DNA of 52,902 nucleotides from an uncultured Candidatus Saccharibacteria bacterium (GCA_964410475.1 CAYPGH010000001.1:1-52902), one strand, 5' to 3'. Positions 1,534-51,014 are shown, counted from the stretch's first letter. Program-made: numbers and translations. Notes: a model not told the origin generated them from the letters alone.

Positions 1534-3501
1534 ATGCGAGTAGTCTCATTTTCAACAGATTGGAGCGTATTTGATGAGCATAGCGCTGTTGCGCGGCGAC
1601 AGCGTATGCAGGCATCAACGCTTGAACGATTGGAAGTATTCGTTCCGCACGGTCCAAAGCAGATAGCACATCTTGCGCCGAACGCTACGATAAGAGGGTT
1701 TGGTCTCGGTAGAACACTTGGTGCGCTACGCGCCATTCTTGCCGCACTTCGTTTGCCGCAACCGGATATAGTTTCCGCACAAGACCCATTTCTTATTGGC
1801 CTTACTGCGTGGTGCGCCGCACGACTGTCGGGTGCCAAACTGCATGTCCAAGTGCATACCGATGTTTTTTCACCGGGGTTCTCCGCACACTCCAGGAAGA
1901 ATCGTCTTTTTGTGGTCCTCGCACGTTTCATTTTGCGCCGCGCTGATGCCGTCCGCGTCGTTTCAGAACGCATCAAAGAAACGCTTAAGCCGCTTCATCT
2001 CACCACTCCAGTATCAGTATTACCCGTGTTTGTTGATGGGGAAGCAATTACTCGCGCAGAAGCAATAGACAAGAAAAAAGAATTTCCCGATTTTCAAAAA
2101 CTCGTACTAGTCGTCTCTCGGCTTGAGCCGGAGAAAAATGTAGCTGCCGCAATACGGGCATTCTTCCAAATCCAAAAGGCGCAAGTCGGGGCCGGTTTGG
2201 TTATCGTAGGGAGTGGAAGCGAGGGAGCGGCACTTTATGAGCTTGCTCAAGAGCTTGGGATTGAGAAGCAAATTGTATTTGTGGGAGCCAGGGATTCACT
2301 TCCGTTTTATAAAGTAGCGGATCTTCTGCTGGTCACCTCTGAGTTTGAAGGGTACGGCATGGTTATTGTGGAGGCGCTCGTCGCCGGATGCCCTGTGGTT
2401 TCCTATGATGTCGGTGTTGCTCGGGAGGCGGGAGCTATCCTTGCGTCTCCGGAGGAACTTCCTTCGCGCGCGATCGCGGTTCTCTCCGAAGGTCGGCGCG
2501 GCTCTCTTTCATTTCCGCTTCTTTCAGAATCAGAATATAGAGACATGTGGCGCGCCGAGATAGGGGGAGCGTTGGCAGAAGGTTCGATGAGTTCTGTTGC
2601 GCAGAAGGAAAAAGTGAAATCTCGCATTGGCTACATCGGGCAAGGCTTCATCGGCAAGAATTATGCCGATGACCTGGAACGCCGCGGATTTGAGGTAGTT
2701 CGGTATGCTCTTGAAGAGCCGTATCGTGCGAACAAAGAGAAAATACGCGATTGCGATATCGTATTCATTGCGGTACCGACGCCGACGACTCCTGAGAAGT
2801 TTGACGACAGCATTGTTCGGAGTGCACTTTCGCTGGTCGGAAAAGGAGAGACGGCAGTCGTTAAGTCTACACTCTTGCCGGGAACCACAGCACAATTGCA
2901 AAAGGCGTATCCGGATATCTTTGTGATGCACTCGCCGGAATTCTTGCGCGAGGCGACGGCTGCGTTTGACGCGTCGCATCCTGATAGGAATATCATCGGT
3001 ATCGCAAATGACACACCTGAAGCGCGACGCAAAGCCGGAGAAGTACTTGCGGTCTTGCCAGCTTCGCCGTTTAGTCTTGTGTGCTCTTCTCTCGAGGCGG
3101 AGATAGTCAAATACGCGGGGAACAGTTGGCTGTATGTAAAGGTCGTGTATATCAACATGCTCTATGATCTCGTACAGAAGCTCGATGGAAACTATGATGT
3201 TGTCCGCGACGCACTTGCCGCCGATCCGCGCGTCGGCCGCTCGCACCTGGATCCCGTGCATCAAAGCGGGCACGGGGGTAAACCCGCGCGTGGGGCCGGA
3301 GGCCACTGTCTTATCAAGGATTTCGAGGCATTGCGGCGTTTGTATGAAGAGAAGGTGGCCGACGAATATGGTGCGCGAGTATTTGACACGTTAGCTGCAA
3401 AAAACCTTGACCTTCTCCTATCAAGCGGCAAGGATATTGATCTTCTAAAGGGTGTATATGGAGAAGATGTGGAGAAGGAGAAAAAGAATCTTCTTGAGTG
3501 A
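1534..3501 (+). CDS. Fusion protein: GT4 glycosyltransferase (N-terminal, about 360 aa) plus a short UDP-glucose/GDP-mannose dehydrogenase-family domain (C-terminal, about 290 aa)
   Basis: One uninterrupted 655-aa ORF. The N-terminal half has the GT4 E-x7-E region (SEFEGYGMVIVEAL). The C-terminal half has IGYIGQGFIGKN (Rossmann fold), AVPTPT, SPEFLREATA and GAGGHCLIKD (catalytic Cys motif of UGDH-type enzymes). Confidence 0.75.
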   Translation: MRVVSFSTDWSVFDEHSAVARRQRMQASTLERLEVFVPHGPKQIAHLAPNATIRGFGLGRTLGALRAILAALRLPQPDIVSAQDPFLIGLTAWCAARLSGAKLHVQVHTDVFSPGFSAHSRKNRLFVVLARFILRRADAVRVVSERIKETLKPLHLTTPVSVLPVFVDGEAITRAEAIDKKKEFPDFQKLVLVVSRLEPEKNVAAAIRAFFQIQKAQVGAGLVIVGSGSEGAALYELAQELGIEKQIVFVGARDSLPFYKVADLLLVTSEFEGYGMVIVEALVAGCPVVSYDVGVAREAGAILASPEELPSRAIAVLSEGRRGSLSFPLLSESEYRDMWRAEIGGALAEGSMSSVAQKEKVKSRIGYIGQGFIGKNYADDLERRGFEVVRYALEEPYRANKEKIRDCDIVFIAVPTPTTPEKFDDSIVRSALSLVGKGETAVVKSTLLPGTTAQLQKAYPDIFVMHSPEFLREATAAFDASHPDRNIIGIANDTPEARRKAGEVLAVLPASPFSLVCSSLEAEIVKYAGNSWLYVKVVYINMLYDLVQKLDGNYDVVRDALAADPRVGRSHLDPVHQSGHGGKPARGAGGHCLIKDFEALRRLYEEKVADEYGARVFDTLAAKNLDLLLSSGKDIDLLKGVYGEDVEKEKKNLLE

Positions 3502-8129: not shown

Positions 8130-9410
8130 CTAAACTTTCGAGTTTTTAACTATTCTCAAATCTGGTAGGACCATTACAAAATCGGATTTCAATCCTGCCT
8201 TCTTCAACCTCTTCATAATTACATCGGCATATTGCCATGACATAAGAACGACATAATCCGGTTGTTGTTTAAATAATATCTTTTCGTGTACTACGGGGAT
8301 ATGTTTTCCCGCCAAATACTTGCCCAATTTTAATGACGTCGGTAGCTCTGCCAGATAGGGAATATATTCGGTATCGATGCCGTAGTAATTCAAGAGCGTT
8401 GTGGCTCGTCCCGGGCACGATTTTCCGACGATGGATTTACCGGACCTTTTTACCTTTATCAGGAAATCCATAAATTCAAGACGCGCCTTCTGTGCGCGCC
8501 GTGCGAACTTCTTGTACGTTGCGAGCTTGTCTAACCCGGCCTCCTTCTCCAGTTTCAGCAATTGGGATACACGCGGACTCACGTCTCTTCCCTTACCCTT
8601 CGCGACATGCACGCGGATATTGCCGCCGAAATTACGCCCCCGCTCCACATCGGTCACAGTAAAGTCGTACTGATCAAACAGGGAGATGAGTGAGCGGAGA
8701 GAATATGTCCTTAGATGCGCGTGGTAGATGGTGTCGAATTGACCCACTTCTATCACGTCGAGAAGATAATGCATTTCAGCAATAAATACGCCGTCGTCCT
8801 CCAATAGATTGTGTATTCCCATGATGACCTCACCCATCTCCTGCACATGGGCGAACACGTTCGTCGTGATTATTATCGCCGCCCTGCCGTATTTTTTCTT
8901 GATTTGTTCCGAGGTCTTGATGTCAAAAAACGACTGAATAGTCCGAATGCCATCGGCATTTGCGATTTTAGCGATATTGGTCGGCTCAATCCCCAAGATC
9001 CTCACACCCTCCCTTTTAAAACCGCTAAGCAAAGTGCCGTCGTTTGAACCGATGTCTATAGCGAGATCTTTTGAGGTCAGATTATATTTTTCAATGAGAG
9101 AGATGCATATCTGCCTCTGATAATCTGCCAATGGTTTGGAGATGCCACTACGATATGGATAGTCGGGGTAATACAGTTCTTTACTGTCTACGCAATAATC
9201 TATTTGGACATCGGTGCACGTTTGACACCATACCATGCGCAATGGGTACGTTTTCTCGGGTTCATTAAGTGTCTCTTTGGTAAGCAGGGTGTCACAGAGC
9301 GGTTGGTGCCCGAGATCCAATATGACGTGTACTTTTGACGAATTACAGATTTGACAGCGCTGGACATGCCCTGTTTTCACTGAATGATGTTTAGGGTATG
9401 TCGATTTCAT
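8130..9410 (-). CDS. NDP-hexose C-methyltransferase (Zn-ribbon + Methyltransf_13/14 type, TylCIII-like)
   Basis: ORF 8130..9482. I start it at ATG 9410 (MKSTYPKHH...) because the upstream 24 codons are a translation of repeat copy A. Contains CQICNSSKVHVILDLGHQPLCDTLL, WCQTCTDVQ, AIDIGSNDGTLL. Confidence 0.8.
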   Translation of the reverse strand: MKSTYPKHHSVKTGHVQRCQICNSSKVHVILDLGHQPLCDTLLTKETLNEPEKTYPLRMVWCQTCTDVQIDYCVDSKELYYPDYPYRSGISKPLADYQRQICISLIEKYNLTSKDLAIDIGSNDGTLLSGFKREGVRILGIEPTNIAKIANADGIRTIQSFFDIKTSEQIKKKYGRAAIIITTNVFAHVQEMGEVIMGIHNLLEDDGVFIAEMHYLLDVIEVGQFDTIYHAHLRTYSLRSLISLFDQYDFTVTDVERGRNFGGNIRVHVAKGKGRDVSPRVSQLLKLEKEAGLDKLATYKKFARRAQKARLEFMDFLIKVKRSGKSIVGKSCPGRATTLLNYYGIDTEYIPYLAELPTSLKLGKYLAGKHIPVVHEKILFKQQPDYVVLMSWQYADVIMKRLKKAGLKSDFVMVLPDLRIVKNSKV

Positions 9411-9536
9411 CCCGTTAGAGGCAGGAAGCAACGCTTCCCGTACCTGATTTATTGCCAATAACCGACCCTGCTGATTTTCCACGTAGATGCTTCATATATT
9501 AAGTTTGCCTTCCGCGGCCTCTAACGGGATTCATGA
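9406..9536 (-). repeat. Long-stem element (LSE) copy A, 131 bp
   Basis: Arms ATCCCGTTAGAGGC (9409-9422) and GCCTCTAACGGGAT (9517-9530) form a 14-bp perfect stem. Second stem GGAAG 9424-9428 / CTTCC 9509-9513, with 1-nt and 3-nt bulges. Identical to copy B at 130/131 positions. Confidence 0.9.
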
Positions 9537-9617
9537 CCGAATTGTTGTCTCTTTAGCGGTTCGCAATTATAGCATCTCGCTTTCGTGGCTCAAGGACAGT
9601 GTTTCTGCCGGAGTTTT

Positions 9618-10577
9618 TCATTTTCCGCCCGCTTTACGTCGTCGATAAAAAGCGACCGTCTTTTTAAGACCACTCTCGAAACGAATCTTTGGCTTCCATC
9701 CCAAAGCCTTCTGCGCTTTCAAAGACTTAAGCGCGTAGCGGAAATCGTGGCCGAGCCTGTCCTCAACATGCTCTATCTGCCGCCGATCTTTTCCGAGGGC
9801 GCGTACGAGCATTTGTGCGACTTCTATATTAGGTAGTTCATCATGCCCACCGATGTTGTATATCTCACCGCTCTTTCCTTTGTGGAACGCGAGATCAATA
9901 CCTTTCACGCCGTCCTCGACGTAGAGCCAGCTACGCACATTTTTACCGCTACCATAGAGCGGTACGTTCTTTCCTGCGAGCAGGTTGGTAATTGAAAGTG
10001 GAATGAGTTTCTCCTCGTATTGTCGCGGACCGTAGTTGTTCGAGAGGCGCGTAATCACGATGTCGAGCCCAAAGGTGCGATTGTATGCGAGGACGAGCAT
10101 GTCGGCGCCTGCCTTTGATGCGCTGTATGGGCTACTCGGAGATAGCGTGTCTCCTTCTTTCGAGGGACGCGCATTCTTTGTAAGTGAGCCATACACCTCG
10201 TCGGTCGATATGTGATGAAAGCGTTGTACACAATGGCGTTTCGCGAGGACGAGCAGGTTATGCGTGCCGACGATGTTGGTCTCGATAAAAATGTCGGGAT
10301 TCTTGATACTCACATCGACATGGCTCTCTGCAGCGAAATGGATGATGTGTGTCGGATTATATTTCTTGAATATTCGCTCCATGGCCGCGAGGTTGCGGAT
10401 ATCTGCTTTCACGAACGAGTAATTCTTCGCCCTTGAGATCTCGATGTTTGCGAGGCGGCCTGCATAGGTAAGCACGTCGACGTTTATGAAGCGGTATCGA
10501 GGGTATTTTCGCACTGCATAGTTGAGGTAATTACTACCGATAAATCCCGCACCCCCGGTAACAAGAATAGTTTTCAT
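9618..10577 (-). CDS. rfbB: dTDP-glucose 4,6-dehydratase
   Basis: MKTILVTGGAGFIGSNY, HFAAESHVD, YSASKAGADMLV, and a length of 319 aa. Sits immediately downstream of a sugar-1-P nucleotidyltransferase. Confidence 0.9.
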   Translation of the reverse strand: MKTILVTGGAGFIGSNYLNYAVRKYPRYRFINVDVLTYAGRLANIEISRAKNYSFVKADIRNLAAMERIFKKYNPTHIIHFAAESHVDVSIKNPDIFIETNIVGTHNLLVLAKRHCVQRFHHISTDEVYGSLTKNARPSKEGDTLSPSSPYSASKAGADMLVLAYNRTFGLDIVITRLSNNYGPRQYEEKLIPLSITNLLAGKNVPLYGSGKNVRSWLYVEDGVKGIDLAFHKGKSGEIYNIGGHDELPNIEVAQMLVRALGKDRRQIEHVEDRLGHDFRYALKSLKAQKALGWKPKIRFESGLKKTVAFYRRRKAGGK

Positions 10578-10693
10578 GATGGCAATATAAGAGAGCCGAC
10601 TTGCCCCGTAGCCGACGCGAAGCGTCGCGGTACTGGGGTGAATCCCGCACCACCCGAGACGAGCATCGTTGTCTCTTTCATATTGCGCTTCAT
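10574..10693 (-). pseudogene. Orphan 5' stub of a different SDR epimerase/dehydratase gene
   Basis: Starting at the ATG that follows copy B, the frame reads MKRNMKETTMLVSGGAGF (a Rossmann-fold N-terminus), then loses similarity in a GC-rich imperfect hairpin. It stops at a TGA overlapping the rfbB ATG. Confidence 0.5.
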
Positions 10694-10819
10694 CCCGTTA
10701 GAGGCAGGAAGCAACGCTTCCCGTACCTGATTTATTGCCAATAACCGACCCTGCTGATTTTCCACGTAGATGCTTCATATATTAAGTTTGCCTTCCGAGG
10801 CCTCTAACGGGATTCATGA
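10689..10819 (-). repeat. Long-stem element (LSE) copy B, 131 bp
   Basis: Arms at 10692-10705 and 10800-10813. The only difference from copy A is 10798 a versus 9515 c, in the 3-nt bulge. The TAG stop of the rfbA-like gene (10804-10806) lies inside the arm. Confidence 0.9.
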
Positions 10820-11553
10820 GGTGCGCGCTTTTTCATAAAGAGGGAAGCCTTATGCAAAGCCTCGATGTTGCCAATATCGAACCACTCTTTTTTGAGAACA
10901 TGAGCGTTCAGAGACCCCTCCGCGAGATATAGGGAATTTACCGACGTAATCTCATATTCGCCCCGTTCACTTGGAGACACCCTTCTGATTTTATCAAAGA
11001 CGCTGTTGTCATATATATAGAAGCCGGTAACCGCCATGTTACTTTTTGGTTTGGACGGCTTCTCCTCAAGACTTATTATTTTACCTCTCGGGTTCACCTC
11101 CGCTATGCCAAAGCGCTTTGGGTCGGAGACTTTCTTTAAAAACACAGTGGCGCCCTTTTTGAATTTCTTGATAGCGGGTGAGATATCATCCATGAATATA
11201 TTGTCTCCCAAAAAAAGCACGCAGTTATCGTCTCCTATGTAATCCTCTGCAATATGGAGTCCATACGCGATGCCATTCGGCTCGTTTTGAATGCCGTAGA
11301 CTATCTGTATCTGTCTGGCGGTTGTCGATGTTGTTGGTACAAAGTGCTGTCCTGAACCAAGCAACTTTACGAATGCGTCAATGTGATGAGGAGAGGTTAC
11401 GACCATTATCTTCGTTATACCCGCATCAACCAGCTTCTCTATAGCATAGTAGATGACAGGCTTATTAAATACAGGTAATAGATGTTTGTTTGTAACAAGG
11501 GTTAGCGGGTGCAATCTGATGCCAGACCCTCCTGCGAGGATGACTGCTTTCAT
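10804..11553 (-). CDS. rfbA: Sugar-1-phosphate nucleotidyltransferase (glucose-1-phosphate thymidylyltransferase-like, short form)
   Basis: ORF 10804..11580. I start it at ATG 11553 (MKAVILAGGSGIRLHPLTLVTNKHLLPVFNKPVIYY). The substrate is inferred only from its position upstream of rfbB. Confidence 0.75.
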   Translation of the reverse strand: MKAVILAGGSGIRLHPLTLVTNKHLLPVFNKPVIYYAIEKLVDAGITKIMVVTSPHHIDAFVKLLGSGQHFVPTTSTTARQIQIVYGIQNEPNGIAYGLHIAEDYIGDDNCVLFLGDNIFMDDISPAIKKFKKGATVFLKKVSDPKRFGIAEVNPRGKIISLEEKPSKPKSNMAVTGFYIYDNSVFDKIRRVSPSERGEYEITSVNSLYLAEGSLNAHVLKKEWFDIGNIEALHKASLFMKKRAPHESR

Positions 11554-11674
11554 CCCGTTAGAGGCAGGACGCGGAAACAAAATATGCTCCGCACACTGGC
11601 ATGCTAATGCTAATAAATTTCGATTTCATAAGTAAATTAGCGATGAGTCGTCCGCGGCCTCTAACGGGATTCAT
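11549..11674 (-). repeat. Long-stem element (LSE) copy C
   Basis: Arms at 11552-11565 and 11657-11670, identical to those of A/B. The interior is unrelated. The second stem is GGACG/CGTCC (a compensated change relative to A/B). It ends directly at the rfbA-like ATG. Confidence 0.85.
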
Positions 11675-11831
11675 CCCGTTAGAGGCAGGAAGCTTGCCCC
11701 GTTAGAAATATCGTTTCTAACGGGGCTTGCACTTCCGACTCGGAAATTATTGCTTGTAAGCATACAACTGATGATAAACATATAGAGAATGTAGCACAAC
11801 CGGAACTACCGCGGCTTCTAACGGGATTCAC
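11670..11831 (-). repeat. Long-stem element (LSE) copy D, with a nested hairpin
   Basis: Arms at 11673-11686 (ATCCCGTTAGAGGC) and 11814-11827 (GCTTCTAACGGGAT; one position gives a G-T/G-U pair). Nested perfect hairpin GCCCCGTTAGAAA-TATCG-TTTCTAACGGGGC at 11696-11726. Together with copy C it forms a 30-bp perfect palindrome at 11657-11686. Confidence 0.85.
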
Positions 11832-11870
11832 TGCGGCCATACTATACTTTCCGTGATATAGTGTCCAATC

Positions 11871-12635
11871 ATGTTGAGTGAGGGCAAGAAATCCATATGT
11901 ATTATCCTTGCCTACAACTGCGGCAACGTCCTTGAGAACACGTATAGACGCATACCGAAAGATTCCGTGGACCACATCGTGCTAATTGACGATGGCTCTA
12001 CTGACAATACGCTTGCAGAGGCAAGCCGGCTCGGCATTGAGTACTACACTCACGAGAATCTGGGGTACGGAGGAAATATAAAATACTCCATAAGGAAAAG
12101 CATTGAACTGGGATTCGAATACATAGTCGATTTACACGGAGACGGGCAATACGATCCTACGGCCATACCTATAGCGCTTGCAAAAGCCAGGGAGGGTTAT
12201 GATTTTGTACTGGGGTCCCGCTTCACAGATCCTATGCAGCCGTTGCGGGATGGCATGTCGTGGGCGCGCTATTTTGCAAATATCGGCTTAAGTTCCATTG
12301 AACGTCTTGTGCTCAATCTTCCTCTCACAGAGTTCCACACGGGATTCAGGATCTATACAAAACATCTGGCAGAGACCGTAGCGCTCGAAAACACGTCCGA
12401 CGATTTTCTCTTTAGCTTTCAGATTATCGCGCAAGCCGTTTTTGCCAAGCTCAAGATAGGAGAAGTGCCGATACGTTGTAACTATAAGGAAGAACACTCA
12501 TCCATCTCTATTCCAAGATCCATTAAGTACGCATTTCAAACATTTGGAATTCTCGCACTCTATCTTTTGGCGAGGATGGGTTTCAGAACCAAGCTATTTG
12601 CAAAAAATGATGCCGGACTTAAACGGCAGTATTGA
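11871..12635 (+). CDS. GT2 family glycosyltransferase
   Basis: ICIILAYNCGNVLENT...IVLIDDGSTDNT, then DLHGDGQYDP (DxD-type region). 254 aa. Confidence 0.8.
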   Translation: MLSEGKKSICIILAYNCGNVLENTYRRIPKDSVDHIVLIDDGSTDNTLAEASRLGIEYYTHENLGYGGNIKYSIRKSIELGFEYIVDLHGDGQYDPTAIPIALAKAREGYDFVLGSRFTDPMQPLRDGMSWARYFANIGLSSIERLVLNLPLTEFHTGFRIYTKHLAETVALENTSDDFLFSFQIIAQAVFAKLKIGEVPIRCNYKEEHSSISIPRSIKYAFQTFGILALYLLARMGFRTKLFAKNDAGLKRQY

Positions 12636-30195: not shown

Positions 30196-31410
30196 ATGAC
30201 ACGCAGACGACCGCAGCCACTTTTCCCTCATTTGCAATATTGCACGCGCTGCTGTGTTCCGGAGACACAGGAAGGTATCAGGTTTGACGAAATGAGTATC
30301 TGCCAGGCATGCCAATCCTCGGAACAAAAGATTCATATCAATTGGGTGGAGCGGGAAGGTCAGCTTCGAAAGATATGTGATGAGGCTAAAGCGAAGGCGG
30401 GCGATAACTACGATTGCATTATTCCGATATCGGGCGGGAAAGACAGTGCATATCAATTGCACGTTCTAACAAAAATATATGGCATGAAGCCACTTGCGGT
30501 TACTCATAGTCATAATTGGTGGAGCGAGAGCGGGTGGTACAACCTCCAGAATACTCTGGAGACTTTTAACGTAGACCATATCGTATTCACTCCGAATAGG
30601 GGGCTCATAAATCGATTGGCAAAGAAATCCGTCGAAATGATCGGCGACGTGAGCTGGCACGATCATTCGGGAATCGGCTCCGTCCCGATCGGAATTGCGG
30701 TGCGCTTCAAGATTCCTCTTCTCGTCTGGGGGGAATCGCTCGCGGAGAATTCTGGAAGAGCGACCTATGAAGATCCCGTGCACAAGTGGGACAGGGAATA
30801 TCACCTTAAACAATCGGCGAAAAAGGATGCTGATCAGATGGTGGGCGAGACGCTTTCTTCGCGCGACCTCTATCCGTACATCGTTCCTTCAGAAGAGGAG
30901 ATGAAATCGGTAGGAGTGTGGGGAATACACTTGGGCGATTATATTTTTTGGGATGATGAGCGTCAGACGGAATTTTTGCGCGATACGTACGGGTGGAAAG
31001 AAACGGAAATGGAAAACACCTACAAGCGCTACAAGAGTGTCGAAGACATTATGTCGGGTATGCACGATTTCACCTGCTACCTCAAGCGCGGTTTTAGCCG
31101 TACGACCGAGCAAGCATCGATTGATGTGAGGAACGGCCTCTTGACGCGCGACGAAGCTTTTGCGCTCATCAGAGAGCATGAGTCCGAGCGGCCTGAAGCG
31201 CTTGATTACTATCTGAAAATTACTGATTCGACAGAAGAAGAATTCTATGAGGCCATGAAGAAATTGCGTTTGCCACAGATGAAGGATGTCGACATTCCGG
31301 TAAAGCAGAAAAATCACAAGAACGAAGAGAGACTTGTTCCGTTTCCCGAACAGCTCATTCAGAAATTCAATAAAACCGATTCTAAACGCAAGTATCTCGA
31401 TGAAATATGA
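30196..31410 (+). CDS. N-acetyl sugar amidotransferase (WbpG/PseA-like PP-loop enzyme)
   Basis: Contains YCTRCCVPETQEGIRFDEMSICQACQ (Zn-ribbon) followed by ISGGKDSAYQLHVL (PP-loop). Confidence 0.8.
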   Translation: MTRRRPQPLFPHLQYCTRCCVPETQEGIRFDEMSICQACQSSEQKIHINWVEREGQLRKICDEAKAKAGDNYDCIIPISGGKDSAYQLHVLTKIYGMKPLAVTHSHNWWSESGWYNLQNTLETFNVDHIVFTPNRGLINRLAKKSVEMIGDVSWHDHSGIGSVPIGIAVRFKIPLLVWGESLAENSGRATYEDPVHKWDREYHLKQSAKKDADQMVGETLSSRDLYPYIVPSEEEMKSVGVWGIHLGDYIFWDDERQTEFLRDTYGWKETEMENTYKRYKSVEDIMSGMHDFTCYLKRGFSRTTEQASIDVRNGLLTRDEAFALIREHESERPEALDYYLKITDSTEEEFYEAMKKLRLPQMKDVDIPVKQKNHKNEERLVPFPEQLIQKFNKTDSKRKYLDEI

Positions 31411-31534
31411 ACCTCGTTAGAGACCGCAGTCACACAAAATACACACTACAATGGTACATTCACTTTTCTATTTCACAAATTATATGAGTGACAATAACAA
31501 TACACGACCGCGACCTGTCTCTAACGGGGTGAAC
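31407..31534 (+). repeat. Long-stem element (LSE) copy F (plus-strand sense)
   Basis: ATGAACCTCGTTAGAGACCGCAG ... CGACCGCGACCTGTCTCTAACGGGGTGAAC. The stem 31411-31424 with 31517-30 is 14 bp including one G-U pair. The element fills the whole gap between the amidotransferase TGA and the GTG at 31529. Confidence 0.8.
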
Positions 31535-46731: not shown

Positions 46732-46740
46732 ACTTCATAT

Positions 46741-46890
46741 TTCTTAACGGGGTGGTACCCCGTTAGAAACAGGAAGCGAAGCTTGCCGTCTGAAAATTAC
46801 GGAAGGTGAACGATGTACCTCTTTATATTCGAGCAAGAATCCTAATCGCGCAATAACTTCCGCAGCTTCTAATGGGGTGGTACAATCCCG
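46741..46890 (-). repeat. Long-stem element (LSE) copy E (diverged), flanked by half-sites
   Basis: Arms CCCCGTTAGAAAC (46758-46770) and GCTTCTAATGGGG (46865-46877), with 2 non-Watson-Crick positions. The second stem GGAAG/CTTCC is conserved. There is an extra palindrome AACGGGGT-GGT-ACCCCGTT at 46746-46764. Confidence 0.7.
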
Positions 46891-46896
46891 TGCATG

Positions 46897-47032
46897 CCCC
46901 ACACCAGTCATAGCGTAGCGAAGCATTGTTTACCCTATTATATTACTAGGAAACTACGATAATCACATGAGATACATCCACATTACACACCGTATGGCTT
47001 CACAAAACAATAACGCTATGACTGGTGTGGGG
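46897..47032. repeat. 19-bp perfect inverted repeat with a 98-nt spacer
   Basis: CCCCACACCAGTCATAGCG (46897-46915) is the exact reverse complement of CGCTATGACTGGTGTGGGG (47014-47032). The right arm ends 2 nt before the ATG at 47035. Confidence 0.9.
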
Positions 47033-47034
47033 GT

Positions 47035-49389
47035 ATGACGCTTGAGAAAGTCTTGCGATGGATCGCGTTGGGAGGGATTTTTGCTCTCCCATTCATCGTT
47101 TTTCTTGTTTCCACATCACTTTTTTTCCCTTTTATTACGGCGAAGAACTTCGCTTTTCGACTCATCATTGAGGTGATAACAGGTGCATGGTTGGCGCTCG
47201 CACTCGTTAATTCCACGTATCGTCCTCGAAGGCAATGGCTTTTAGGAACATTTGCTGTCTTTGTCATTATCATCGCACTTGCGGACGCCTTTGGCGCGAA
47301 TCCGTTCAAGAGTTTCTGGAGTAACTATGAGCGCATGGATGGATGGATAACGCTCGCACACCTCTTCCTTTACGTTGTTGTCTCGTCGGTGATGCTTTCG
47401 ACGGAAAAATTGTGGCGCGCATTCTTTAGAGTATCTCTTGCCGTTTCGGCAGTTGTTGGTGCGCATGCACTCCTCCAGCTCTTCGGTGTCGCAAGTTTGA
47501 ACCCGGGATTTTCTTCAGAAACTCGTCTTGACGCTACGTTTGGGAACCCAATATATCTCGCGTCTTACATGCTCTTTCACGTCTTCATTGCGGCGCTTCT
47601 CATGGCGCATTCAGGCAAAGAGAAGTGGGACAAGGTTGAACGATATGTTGTCGGAGGAATCTTTGCAGGAGCGGCTATTTTGGGACTTAGTGTCTTTGGC
47701 AAAACAGGTCTAACTTTTTATGCGTTTCTAATAATTCTAGGCACTATTGGAGGGTTCCTGCTTTATAAACGGAAGATGTATCTTCTTGCCTTCATTCTCA
47801 TACTCGACGCGGTCATCCTCTTTCTTACGGGGACACGGGGCACGATACTGGGCTTTACCGGTGGAGTCATACTTGCGGCATCTCTTTTTGCTCTGTTTGC
47901 ACGCGATTACTCAAAGCGTGCGCGTCAATCTGCCGCAGGAGTCGTTGTAATAATTCTCGTTCTTGCCGGAGGGTTGTATTTCGTGAGAGATCAGTCGTGG
48001 GTGCGAGATACACCCGTTCTCGGTCGCATAGTTACGATATCGATCACAGAGTCAACAGCGAAAGCGCGCATCATGAACTGGGGAGTGGCCTGGCAGGGAG
48101 TGAAAGAGAGACCTCTTTTGGGCTGGGGACAGGAGAATTTCGCGATTGTATTCAACAAGTACTACAACCCTCAGATGTATTCGCAGGAACAATGGTTTGA
48201 TCGAGTTCATAATATTATCTTCGATTGGCTTGTGGCGGGTGGAGCTCTTGGACTTCTTGCGTATCTGTCGCTTTTCGTGCTTTCTCTCTGGTATATCTGG
48301 CGACGAGGTGTAGGGGAAAGCGCTTTTACCGTTAGTGAAGGCAGTATTTTGACGGGCCTTCTAGCCGCCTACTTCTTTCATAATCTCTTTGTGTTCGACA
48401 ATGTCATGAGCTATTTCTTTTTCGCATCCGTGCTCGCATTTGTTTCGTTCCGCGCTGGAGAACATGCGAACAGACCTCGTCTCATTACGGCGTCGCTTTT
48501 CCCACTTCGTTCCCTGCCTTTTATTTCAGCGATCATTGCAGTTTCCGTGTTTGGGGTGGTGTGGTTTGCGAACACTAATCCGCTGGCATCGAACAAAGCG
48601 CTTTTGCAGGCGCTGGCTCCGCACTCGGAGGGTCTTCTTAAGAACCTCGATTACTTCGAGAAAGCGATTTCGTATAACACTCTGGGGAACCAGGAAGCTC
48701 GTGAACAGCTCGCGCAGGCCGCTATGCAAATTGCGCGCCGTGAAGAAGTTCCCATTGAAACGAAACAGAAATTTCTGGAAGCCGCGGCGCGAGAGCTTAC
48801 TCTTCAATCCGAAGCGTCTCCACTCGACCCGCGACCTCTGTTATTTCTCGGCGTTCTCTTGAATACCTACGGACTCTACACTGAAGCGGAGCCAATTCTG
48901 GCACGCGCGTACGCGCTCTCGCCCACCAAGCAGTCAATTATTCTCGAAGTTGCCGCGAATGCGATAGCGCGCGATGATATCGAAACAGCTTTGTCTTTCT
49001 ATAAAGAGGCATATGAGTTAGCGCCCAATTTTACAGACGCACATATACTTTACGCTACGGTCGCCATTCATGCGAAGCAGGACAAATTGGCCGAAGAACT
49101 TCTCACACCGCTTATTGCTGCGGGCGATGCAACCGATAAACGTATCGCTTCAGCATATGCTTCACGCGAGCGTTACGACAAAATCGTATCTATCTGGGAA
49201 GCTCATTTACAAAAGAATCCGGAGGATATTCAAGCGCGCTTCACGCTCGCCTCTGCATACTATGCGGCAGGGAACGCACAGCGTGCGATAGAACAGCTTG
49301 AGATCGCCGCGAGAGCAAATCCATCTTATAAGGAACAGGCTGAAACACTTATGCGCGATATCAGGTCAGGCGCTCTGCGCATCGAGTAA
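47035..49389 (+). CDS. O-antigen ligase/polymerase-like (Wzy_C) membrane protein with a C-terminal TPR domain
   Basis: 784 aa with more than 10 TM segments. Contains RPLLGWGQENF and VHNIIFDWLVAGGALGLL (O-antigen ligase-like loop). The C-terminal 250 aa or so is TPR-like (AYALSP, AYELAPNF, ARANPSY). Confidence 0.7.
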   Translation: MTLEKVLRWIALGGIFALPFIVFLVSTSLFFPFITAKNFAFRLIIEVITGAWLALALVNSTYRPRRQWLLGTFAVFVIIIALADAFGANPFKSFWSNYERMDGWITLAHLFLYVVVSSVMLSTEKLWRAFFRVSLAVSAVVGAHALLQLFGVASLNPGFSSETRLDATFGNPIYLASYMLFHVFIAALLMAHSGKEKWDKVERYVVGGIFAGAAILGLSVFGKTGLTFYAFLIILGTIGGFLLYKRKMYLLAFILILDAVILFLTGTRGTILGFTGGVILAASLFALFARDYSKRARQSAAGVVVIILVLAGGLYFVRDQSWVRDTPVLGRIVTISITESTAKARIMNWGVAWQGVKERPLLGWGQENFAIVFNKYYNPQMYSQEQWFDRVHNIIFDWLVAGGALGLLAYLSLFVLSLWYIWRRGVGESAFTVSEGSILTGLLAAYFFHNLFVFDNVMSYFFFASVLAFVSFRAGEHANRPRLITASLFPLRSLPFISAIIAVSVFGVVWFANTNPLASNKALLQALAPHSEGLLKNLDYFEKAISYNTLGNQEAREQLAQAAMQIARREEVPIETKQKFLEAAARELTLQSEASPLDPRPLLFLGVLLNTYGLYTEAEPILARAYALSPTKQSIILEVAANAIARDDIETALSFYKEAYELAPNFTDAHILYATVAIHAKQDKLAEELLTPLIAAGDATDKRIASAYASRERYDKIVSIWEAHLQKNPEDIQARFTLASAYYAAGNAQRAIEQLEIAARANPSYKEQAETLMRDIRSGALRIE

Positions 49390-50289: not shown

Positions 50290-50609
50290 TCGTTTATTGT
50301 AGAGCGGGAGATTTTTCCGAAGCGAGGCAATGGGGATGAATGGCGCGTAGAATTTGAAGCGGCCTGTTTTATTCAAAGCGCAGAATTCACCGACAGCTTG
50401 GCCGTTAGTTTATTTTTTGATATCCCGCATCTCGTTTTTTTCTTTATTTTTTTTTGCATGCAATTTTGTCTTTTAGTTATCCACACATGCGCGCGTAAAA
50501 ACACTTATGCGCACATATGAATGCAATAATTAAAAAGTAAAACGCATCTTCGCATGTTTGTGCGCAAGTGCGGGTCGAGTTAATACAAAAAATATTTCTA
50601 TTTATATCT

Positions 50610-50729: not shown

Positions 50730-51014
50730 ACCCCGTTATAAGCAGAACGCCCCGCGGCTTGCCGCGGAGATGAATGCTAGTCGGGCTTAGCGAACTCGGG
50801 GTTTAATCCATGCGCAGAATTCCCCGACAGCTTGGCTGCGGGGATGAATGCGCATGAGGAAAGGAGGGTCGGGGAAAACGTAGTTTTCCCCGTGGAGGAG
50901 AGCAGAGAGCCTGTAATCAGGCGAACGTTGAGAACCGAGTGGTTCTCAAAATAAAATACCGCGACAGCTTGGCTACGCGGTAGTTTATTGTTCCGCGTGA
51001 GCTTCTAACGGGGT
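50730..51014 (-). repeat. Long-stem element (LSE) copy G, with a large (257-nt) interior
   Basis: ACCCCGTTATAAGC (50730-50743) pairs with GCTTCTAACGGGGT (51001-51014), 14 bp with one mismatch. A 1-nt bulge plus GAAC/GTTC second stem echo the other copies. The interior holds two of the GACAGCTTGGC hairpins. Confidence 0.6.

Follow-up and report, generated by a model that had tools for sequence, protein, structure and literature searches.

Several families of short palindromic repeats that settle between bacterial genes have been described. The Correia elements of Neisseria, ERIC, RUP and the Rickettsia palindromic elements, which are MITEs (miniature inverted-repeat transposable elements), measure about 100-150 bp, carry terminal inverted repeats, duplicate their target and hold no open reading frame (ORF); they lie inside operons, form hairpins in transcripts and can supply the ends of genes. 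Among elements that move themselves, IS200, of about 700 bp, is the usual benchmark for the smallest. Another kind of guest, the small selfish GIY-YIG nuclease gene wedged between host genes, is represented by the seg genes of phage T4 and the I-TevI family. Here we analyse hairpin elements in a stretch of 52,902 nt from an uncultured Candidatus Saccharibacteria bacterium (GCA_964410475.1 CAYPGH010000001.1:1-52902), called the window below, and compare them with genomic loci that are labelled by L-numbers. The window hairpins are, with a probability of about 0.75, non-autonomous, ORF-less copies of a very small mobile element family of mostly Patescibacteria, the coding form of which carries a 94-residue GIY-YIG nuclease. 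Searches of open-access papers found no description of this repeat or of GIY-YIG elements bounded by inverted repeats, nor any paper containing the arm motif.

Copies of the element in the window

Seven copies, A to G, read in the operon sense, were found in the window, together with two smaller derivatives.

Copy A, 11553..11669, minus strand: ORF-less; arms 11554-11668, 115 nt arm to arm, plus a terminal T:A pair.
Copy D, 11674..11826, minus strand: ORF-less; arms 11675-11825; in tandem with A.
Copy B, 10693..10812, minus strand: ORF-less; arms 10694-10811; at the rmlA/rmlB junction.
Copy C, 9410..9529, minus strand: ORF-less; arms 9411-9528; its terminal A (9410) opens the ATG of a C-methyltransferase gene.
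Copy F, 31412..31529, plus strand: ORF-less; arms 31413-31528; terminal pair C:G.
Copy E, 46758..46877, minus strand as judged from its CCTG side: diverged, ORF-less; arms 46759-46876; intergenic, after a cupin gene.
Copy G, 50731..51013, minus strand: diverged, about 280 nt; arms 50732-51012; swollen by nested small hairpins.
Solo arm remnant TTTCTTAACGGGG, 46740..46752, strand not applicable: 5 nt from copy E.
Mini hairpin nested in copy D, 11697..11725, strand not applicable: 29 nt, arms only (CCCCGTTAGAAA-loop-TTTCTAACGGGG), with GCAAG repeats on both sides.

The first-pass annotation, made from the window sequence, had described complete copies that begin RTGAAYC and are followed directly by RTGAA, and its coordinates hold for A, B, C, D and F, the 5' ends of which read RTGAAY-CCCGTTAGAG and the 3' ends CTCTAACGGG-RTGAA. 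In these five copies ATGAAT, GTGAAT or ATGAAC precedes C(C/T)CGTTAGAG at the 5' end, and CCTG(C/T)CTCTAACGGG precedes ATGAA or GTGAA at the 3' end. Copies A to D occupy the minus strand between 9406 and 11831 as four copies of one element, each with the 5' end (A/G)TGAAT-CCCGTTAGA(G/A)GC and the 3' end CCTGCCTCTAACGGG-ATGAA; copy F, on the plus strand, begins ATGAAC-CTCGTTAGAGAC and ends CCTGTCTCTAACGGG-GTGAAC. The 12-mer arm has 16 matches in the window at no more than 2 mismatches against 2.7 expected, and 16 or more were reached in 0 of 100 shuffled sequences. The copies other than G measure 115-151 nt; B and C are 99% identical over 131 nt, and the other interiors differ. Copies D and A share the ATGAAT at 11674..11669, which is at once the right duplicate of D and the left duplicate of A, and the left duplicate of D has drifted to GTGAAT (11831..11826).

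The arms supply start and stop codons to the flanking genes at the positions first proposed. The terminal A of copy A (11553) is the first base of the rmlA start codon, the 3' end of copy B adjoins the ATG at 10693 of a dead 5' stub of rmlB (an SDR gene), copy C stands in the same way before the C-methyltransferase gene, and the terminal G of copy F yields the amidase start GTG (31529); these gene identities (rmlA-like, SDR/rmlB stub, C-methyltransferase, amidase) rest on Pfam. At the other end, the stop TAG of the rmlA-like gene (10804-10806) is the TAG of GTTAGAG in the 5' arm of B, and the TGA at 31408-31410, within the ATGAAC that precedes F, is the stop of a gene for a WbuX-type N-acetyl sugar amidotransferase. 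Copies A, B, C, D and F adjoin start codons in this manner, and the diverged copies E and G adjoin none.

Empty and filled sites at the rmlA start

Metagenome relatives of the window rmlA are found in three states at the start site of the gene: empty, with one element and with two elements. In seven orthologues with 81-88% protein identity the site is empty and reads ...GTATAGTATGGCCGCC-ATGAA-RGCCGT without arms, and the sequence 5' of it is the sequence left of copy D in the window; arm-free orthologues start ...GCCGCC-ATGAA-RGC. The site of copy D is empty in L124, L129, L130, L131, L136, L137 and L166. One element stands at the rmlA start in L125, which has an orthologous copy at the D site (79% identity), and in L121; the window has two. 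L121 is 99.7% identical to the window and shorter by exactly 121 nt, which is copy A, and has ATGAA once: it reads ...CTAACGGG-ATGAA-AGCAGTC where the window reads ...CTAACGGG-ATGAA-T[115 nt]-ATGAA-AGCAGTC. Independent assemblies that encode an identical RmlA protein represent three haplotypes, at least 99.5% identical, in which copy A is present (the window, L201 and L209), absent (L202, L205 and L207), or absent while copy C contains a nested 36-nt mini hairpin (L203, L204, which is the same as L121, L206 and L208). Since the outgroups carry a single element, copy A is a gain, and it is a recent insertion; no donor for it was found among the loci compared.

These empty sites support the earlier suggestion of insertion into ATGAA with target duplication that leaves both cistrons intact, given that element-free orthologues begin at the same ATGAA without arms and a near-identical strain lacks copy A. 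The same can be followed at the rmlA/rmlB junction, where relatives without copy B have overlapping genes of the form ATGA or ATGAnnnnTAA; it follows that B inserted at the start of rmlB and that rmlA now terminates at the TAG of B.

Small hairpins also vary inside the copies. At the site of the mini hairpin in copy D the loop of L125 is uninterrupted (GGAAGC-GCAA-GCTTCC), and the mini hairpin nested in the loop of copy C (L121, 8127-8160), the same 36-nt block, is present or absent among near-identical strains. The loop of copy C in the window is GTT, where the simple empty form would be GCAA, and this suggests gene conversion between copies.

Anatomy and distribution across genomes

A scan of species-representative genomes for two arms 80-110 nt apart returned at least 120 loci. 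Our census, to which all counts out of 136 refer, comprises 136 non-redundant copies from about 120 species among the matches listed; the scan was tied to one arm sequence and to copies of 104-134 nt, which, like the restriction to listed matches, biases both the copy numbers and the length distribution. Among the same matches the hosts are nearly all Patescibacteria (Saccharibacteria, Paceibacteria, Nomura-, Wolfe-, Kerfeld-, Azam-, Berkel-, Levy- and Kaiser-bacteria, and Kazan), with a few carrier metagenome-assembled genomes labelled Elusimicrobia or Omnitrophota. No copy was present in the viral contigs scanned. In the analysis the window was placed tentatively in the Patescibacteria, as probably Kaiserbacteria-like; a cluster look-up returned no source names for its proteins.

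The bases just outside the two 12-mer arms are complementary in 135/136 copies (T:A in 111, C:G in 21, G:C in 3), so that the inverted repeat is 13 bp long with a variable outermost pair, Y-CCCGTTAGAR... / ...YTCTAACGGG-R. Beyond this pair stands a 4-nt direct repeat that is exact in 90/136 copies, compared with at most 8 when the register is shifted; 54 copies have TGAA, 12 TGGA, 9 TGAG and 6 TTGA/TCAA. As the repeat differs between copies while its left and right versions co-vary (TGAA, TGGA, TGAG, TTGA and others), it is a true target-site duplication. Direct repeats such as TTCAT had been noted in the first pass; they exist and are better described as 4 nt (TGAA) plus the variable terminal pair of the inverted repeat. 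The alternative that ATGAA is part of the element is correct for the first base of the right-hand start codon only, the remainder being duplication: that base pairs and co-varies with the base before the 5' arm (T:A with ATG, C:G with GTG) and is thus derived from the element. A C:G terminal pair goes with a GTG start in other genomes as well as at copy F, which fits a duplication of 4 bp, with the first base brought by the element, better than one of 5 bp. In the element sense, the duplication has the form TGNN in 57 copies and NNCA in 2. Pairing is kept within the arms too: positions 10 and 11 form Watson-Crick pairs in 113/116 and 104/116 copies under a search pattern that permitted any purine with any pyrimidine, mismatches included.

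A start codon lies flush with the 3' arm in 105/136 copies (99 ATG, 6 GTG), and the ORF behind it is no shorter than 60 codons (median 221); 1% would be expected at random positions and 28% at all ATGAA sites. The genes behind these starts are unrelated and mostly housekeeping (ribosomal proteins L17, L18, L9 and S2, SSB, trigger factor, GyrA, AlaRS, a ligase, sugar enzymes). The upstream gene stops at the TGA of the left ATGAAT in 13 cases and at the TAG of the arm in 11, and otherwise from a few to 47 nt upstream. Orientation is fixed, the arm preceded by CTG being gene-proximal in 86 copies against 3; the bias could be mechanistic or selective, two effects that are not separable while nearly all copies lie at start-like sites, and a cohesive-end model was set aside as its explanation.

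This strict orientation is one of the points that speak for a cis-acting RNA hairpin, a translation or stability signal inherited vertically as part of the leader and not mobile. The ORF-less copies are predicted to fold stably (-33 to -51 kcal/mol, z = -2.3 to -4.3), a second helix is kept beside the start codon, and the genome has no Shine-Dalgarno sites, so that structure near starts could matter. Such a signal would not, however, be present and absent between near-identical strains or leave empty orthologous sites with the same start codon, nor does it account for the co-varying duplications and the tandem copies; the arms hold as many G:U as A:C mismatches (6 vs 6), which gives no strand-specific RNA signal, and Rfam 15 had no match at gathering score in the whole window, its only hit at E <=5 within 9350-11900 being of chance level (E = 1.8). 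A scan for tRNA and tmRNA found none. We regard a purely structural RNA as very unlikely, and the hairpin may still have a secondary effect on expression.

Three expression-related roles were set aside. A leader-peptide or re-initiation function of the ORF-less copies is not general, since the ORF from the left ATG stops inside the element in most of them and ends at the 3' arm in 26/77 only. Bridging of a Shine-Dalgarno site does not apply, as 84/104 left flanks have no such site and neither do the sequences upstream of the window genes, and an outward promoter in the 3' arm would stand too close to the ATG. About 36 gene starts of the window (e.g., 1534, 10577, 11871, 24214 and 30078) have no Shine-Dalgarno motif 5-12 nt upstream, and several -10-like hexamers lie only 6-12 nt before an ATG, which suggests that the mRNAs of this organism may be leaderless or have very short leaders.

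Integron-type attC sites or REP/REPIN elements marking cassettes in a polysaccharide cluster form another candidate, brought to mind by the likeness of GTTAGAG and CTCTAAC to attC core sites, by a size of about 115 nt with a variable centre, and by the clustering of copies between genes of a variable sugar locus. The polarity of the outer boxes is inverted, however (GTTAGAG...CTCTAAC in the element against RYYYAAC...GTTRRRY in attC), and on this ground attC was rejected; no integrase is found among the window proteins scanned, and the host genes elsewhere are mostly housekeeping. RAYT/IS200-like HUH genes occur near 5/120 loci with hairpins of their own, different from the element, and the palindromes that flank the following four are unrelated to the arms.

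RAYT-like HUH gene, L067 6902-7615.
RAYT-like HUH gene, L073 5803-6468.
RAYT-like HUH gene, L093 41-658.
RAYT-like HUH gene, L100 2793-3467.

The gene in L073 has the palindrome TGTCCAAAGCCGAGCTTTGGACA on both sides. An element of the IS200/IS605 type, with separate hairpins at its ends, no inverted termini and no target duplication, was likewise rejected: here the two ends are complementary to one another, and there is a duplication in the flanks that co-varies. Taken as a whole, the attC or REP explanation is barely credible.

Coding copies with a GIY-YIG nuclease gene

The same arms enclose a 94-codon GIY-YIG nuclease gene at 11 distinct loci. These coding copies measure 274 bp arm to arm, span exactly 285 nt from ATG to TGA in 11/11 cases, and are flanked by ATGAAY and RTGAAN in all 11. 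The intact ORF among the longer copies is illustrated by L101 (2986-3260), where it starts at the ATG of the left flank, runs through the 5' arm as ATG AAT CCC GTT AGA GAC (MNPVRD), and leaves through the 3' arm as C CTG TCT CTA ACG GGA TGA (LSLTG-stop), the TGA overlapping the host ATG. In other words, the ATG of the nuclease gene is the left duplicate, the termini MNPVRD and FLSLTG are the arms, and the TGA is the right duplicate in an ATGA overlap with the host start codon. In L122, the rmlA of which is 90% identical to that of the window, the GIY-YIG gene sits exactly on the rmlA start codon behind a TATAAT box. A called downstream gene starts 4 nt before the nuclease stop at 9/11 loci; in L101 ATGAAA follows the stop, as read from sequence without a gene call, and at the ABC-transporter locus the called start is at 1806 in L217 and at the overlap in L218 and L219. 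In several coding copies the upstream gene also ends in the left ATGA. Full-length elements were also seen between two PEP-utilizers ORFs (L215, 1-3260) and between two Exo_endo_phos ORFs (L222, 1-1685); the two ORFs of each pair belong to one Pfam family and may be paralogues in tandem, or else the halves of a host gene that the element entered at an internal ATGAA.

The L101 and L122 proteins match the Pfam GIY-YIG model PF01541 with 56.7 and 61.2 bits (cut-off 22.6; E = 3e-15 and 1e-16), and a protein database search returned 2328 clusters at E <=1e-5. Among the best 120 of these 2328 clusters, which are 65-93% identical to the query, 97 members are exactly 94 residues long; arm-encoded termini run through all 97, and 79/97 end in FLSLTG. 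Named members are GIY-YIG nuclease family proteins of Patescibacteria, Kaiserbacteria or Paceibacterota, and the consensus reads MNPVRD...YTG.TNDLRKRF..H...STKGR...LIYYE...DARSRE..LKSGMGKRYLKNRLKRFLSLTG. The catalytic residues Y24, R34 and E70 are invariant in both alignments, and Y13, H38 and N84 are conserved at 90% or more; R32 is invariant in alignment A3 and at 90% or more in A4.

Residue 2 of the family members is N, S, I, D or R only, and never K, E or Q, as would be expected if codon 2 consists of two duplicated bases and the T or C of the element. Compensated arm variants alter both protein ends together, as in L217 (CCTGTTACAG / CTGTAACAGG) and in L221 (TCCGTTAGAG / CTCTAACGGA), the protein of which reads MNSVRD...SLTE. 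In an AlphaFold2 model (pLDDT 87) the low-confidence blocks are the two termini, including the arm-encoded residues (means of 58 for residues 1-10 and 63 for residues 91-94; only residues 1-3 fall below 50). The limits on residue 2, the compensated variants and the low-confidence termini together show that the terminal codons are kept for reasons of DNA.

The GIY-YIG identity raises the question of homing, in which a free-standing endonuclease gene spreads by cutting the empty allele and through homologous repair, with arms and repeats incidental. GIY-YIG enzymes are classical homing endonucleases, the nuclease has a weak match to a group I intron endonuclease model, and GIY-YIG genes are listed among those transferred from Patescibacteria (PMC12455944). 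But homing gives no target duplication and needs homologous flanks, whereas the element lies at the starts of dozens of unrelated genes, and ORF-less copies such as A move too. The protein lacks the DNA-binding domain of I-TevI and Seg, and its closest solved relatives are not I-TevI but the UPF0213 proteins BH0048 and EF2693, and the structure-specific nuclease Slx1 (1zg2 is matched by sequence at E = 1.4e-9; Slx1 at TMq ~0.6 and 26-28% identity). A separate DNA-binding domain and a spread confined to the cognate allele without duplication, by which homing endonucleases are recognised, are both missing here, and we judge homing very improbable, if by a hair less so than the structural RNA discussed above.

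A more conventional possibility is that the hairpins are plain MITEs mobilised by some classical DDE transposase, such as an IS1380/piggyBac-like enzyme, with the GIY-YIG gene as passenger or later acquisition. Terminal inverted repeats with a target-site duplication are the classical DDE signature, and the 4-bp duplication and the CCC ends recall piggyBac and its bacterial relative IS1380 (PMC10813416). In the window, a glycosylation gene cluster, no transposase or integrase was found among the proteins scanned, and no long arm-bounded unit exists in ~0.9 Mb of element-carrying loci, where a search for arm pairs 330-6000 nt apart met only combinations of adjacent short copies. No DDE transposase lies between repeats in the window or between arm pairs of the loci surveyed. 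Against this possibility also stand the GIY-YIG gene itself, which is the one gene met between the arms and keeps its frame and its length of 285 nt throughout, and the arm-encoded termini of the 97 proteins. We consider a DDE origin unlikely, although it is the rival to which we would give most room.

A proposed route of insertion

Under the reading of a small mobile family with a GIY-YIG coding form, the target, A-TGAA-N, typically comprises the TG of a start codon and two further bases, and insertion generates a 4-bp duplication, usually TGAA. The terminal A (or G) of the element rebuilds the right duplicate to ATGAA (GTGAA), leaving the host start codon flush with the element. The left duplicate, ATGAA-T, retains an overlapping upstream stop (ATGA) where one existed, and where none did the TAG of the 5' arm can end the upstream gene; the left copy (ATGAA plus T) then either starts the element ORF or stays as a vestige, and TAG, TAA and TGA in the arms and the duplicate close the other frames. 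All the features listed in the first pass are covered by this scheme. Coding copies have both start and stop codon assembled from the target duplication; the nuclease would be translated from the host's own initiation site through the left duplicate and the 5' arm, and, to judge from the geometry, translation of the host gene may follow by ATGA coupling.

The nuclease, acting in trans for the window copies, is the putative cutting enzyme, the paired arms would be what it recognises, pairing of the arms in single-stranded or cruciform DNA may matter, and host repair or ligation would complete the move. A role in mobility is suggested indirectly by three facts: no other gene has been met between the arms, the proteins closest to the nuclease in structure cleave branched DNA, and arm complementarity is kept by compensation. 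The coding element, which has the same ends as the MITE copies, may be autonomous. We put forward, tentatively and at somewhat less than even odds, that the 274-bp coding element is an autonomous transposon of a new mechanistic class, in which an Slx1/UPF0213-like nuclease cuts at the foot of the paired arms and at TGAA and the host seals the ends. If so, it would be the smallest self-mobilising DNA element known to us and the first prokaryotic transposon using a GIY-YIG enzyme, and an element without a start or stop codon of its own, which parasitises the host translation start and passes ribosomes on by the ATGA overlap.

Several observations weigh against this account. In the window itself tblastn found no GIY-YIG similarity, and mobilisation in trans has to be assumed for this genome; the ORF-less interiors keep no likeness to the gene except for ~13 nt on the 5' side and ~20 nt on the 3' side. 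In 34% of copies the direct repeat is not exact, and the census carries the bias of its scan pattern. A second helix beside the gene-proximal arm is kept in 72/116 ORF-less copies, compared with 0.25 in shuffles, either as a continuation of the main stem (37/116) or as a local hairpin (35/116) and in many different sequences; coding copies do not have it, and our account leaves it unexplained. Finally, a GIY-YIG domain of 94 residues offers no evident means of binding or joining DNA; its cutting of arms and target is putative, and a nuclease alone cannot join DNA, a point that also favours a DDE enzyme.

Related hairpins and neighbouring features

A second, related hairpin family is represented in the window by one ORF-less copy.

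Related hairpin family, ORF-less copy, 46897..47032, plus strand: arms CCCCACACC...; 2 nt upstream of the ATG at 47035.

Its 20-nt arms are perfect (CCCCACACCAGTCATAGCGT / ACGCTATGACTGGTGTGGGG), and it stands before the ATG of a Wzy_C/TPR gene with an ATG kept on the left. An element with CCCACAC arms in L129 (5655-5960, minus strand) has GIY-YIG similarity (tblastn, 40% identity), apparently broken by stop codons, and lies on the start codon of a GT2 gene: L129 reads CCAATC ATG [element] T ATG TTGAGC, where the window at 11871 is empty (CCAATC-ATG-TTGAGT). In L131 and L132 a third arm variant surrounds an intact GIY-YIG gene. It thus seems that elements of this sort share start-codon targeting beyond the one family.

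Other small palindromes differ from the element; these include GC-rich hairpins with CGACAGCTTGGC (three copies) and further short palindromes inside copy G (50760-50985) and close by, at 50368-50409. Between copy B and rmlB lies the dead rmlB-type 5' stub (10578-10693, minus strand; MKRNMKETTMLVSGGAGF...), which duplicates the N-terminus of the real rmlB (10577) with 76% identity over 33 nt. Behind the stub come another kind of small hairpin, CCCCAGTACCGCGACGCTTCGCGTCGGCTACGGGG, and then a TATATT box 7 nt before the rmlB ATG. In L129 a similar hairpin sequence interrupts the same place. The region looks like a scar of gene replacement or of another insertion. Elsewhere in the cluster, a 655-residue ORF (1534-3501, plus strand) joins GT4 glycosyltransferase domains (residues ~50-314) to two domains, N-terminal and central, of UDP-glucose/GDP-mannose dehydrogenase (401-608). 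It shares 50 nt with the next ORF and represents a fusion or else a pair with a frameshift.

Implications

The family represents an unusual route to tolerated mobile DNA in streamlined genomes, as it lands on a start codon and rebuilds that codon, and its coding form borrows the host start and a duplicated TGA. It accounts for the 94-residue annotations "GIY-YIG nuclease family protein" in Patescibacteria, the termini of which are conserved for no evident protein reason, and it is the reason why some neighbouring genes start with GTG or have an altered C-terminus. Annotation calls for caution, because ORFs that run into the arms are mis-extended: in the window the longest ORFs continue upstream into the element for the C-methyltransferase (8130-9482, minus strand; 450 aa, GTG) and for rmlA (10804-11580, minus strand; 258 aa, TTG), and public gene calls share the over-extension (450 aa in L201); both genes truly begin at the ATG that adjoins the 3' arm. 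Should the nuclease prove to be the mobility enzyme, transposition would gain a new enzyme class, and the element would be a very small site-directed module, a candidate for DNA insertion at gene starts. Presence/absence polymorphisms such as that of copy A offer strain markers for groundwater populations of Patescibacteria.

Comparison with known systems

The attC sites of integrons are likewise imperfect hairpins of 60-140 nt, placed between co-oriented genes, in which the outer boxes are conserved, the bulge is asymmetric and the centre varies; unlike them, the element has inverted core-site polarity, no integron integrase, and a hairpin that is inserted whole with its own duplication. With the seg genes and the I-TevI family it shares the small selfish GIY-YIG gene between host genes, and it differs from them in a protein that is a catalytic domain only, in its inverted repeats and duplication, in the many unrelated loci occupied, and in ORF-less derivatives. 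The stand-alone GIY-YIG proteins of UPF0213 (YhbQ/COG2827) and Slx1 are the closest matches in sequence and fold, with the positions of the catalytic Tyr, Arg, His, Glu and Asn conserved, but they are not known to have inverted repeats at their borders or to be mobile; Slx1 in addition depends on Slx4 and has a RING domain.

The piggyBac/IS1380 elements resemble the family in the 4-bp duplication of a fixed tetranucleotide, in 13-bp inverted repeats beginning CCC, and in a structure that permits exact restoration of the target on loss; unlike theirs, its TGAA target is not palindromic, and no DDE transposase was found in the material described above. This is a resemblance only, drawn in part from PMC10813416.

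The nearest fit is with the MITEs. The window copies are short and without coding capacity, have terminal inverted repeats and a duplication visible against empty sites, and are accompanied in other genomes by a longer coding element with the same ends. In contrast to the Correia, ERIC, RUP and Rickettsia elements, the target is the start codon itself, to which the element gives the first base; the coding relative is a 274-bp GIY-YIG unit and not an insertion sequence with a DDE transposase; and the same arms recur across many lineages (Saccharibacteria, Paceibacteria, Kaiserbacteria, Berkelbacteria and others). Thus, the window features are of the MITE kind, and the family is an unusual variant of it, and possibly a new class if the nuclease proves to be the transposase.

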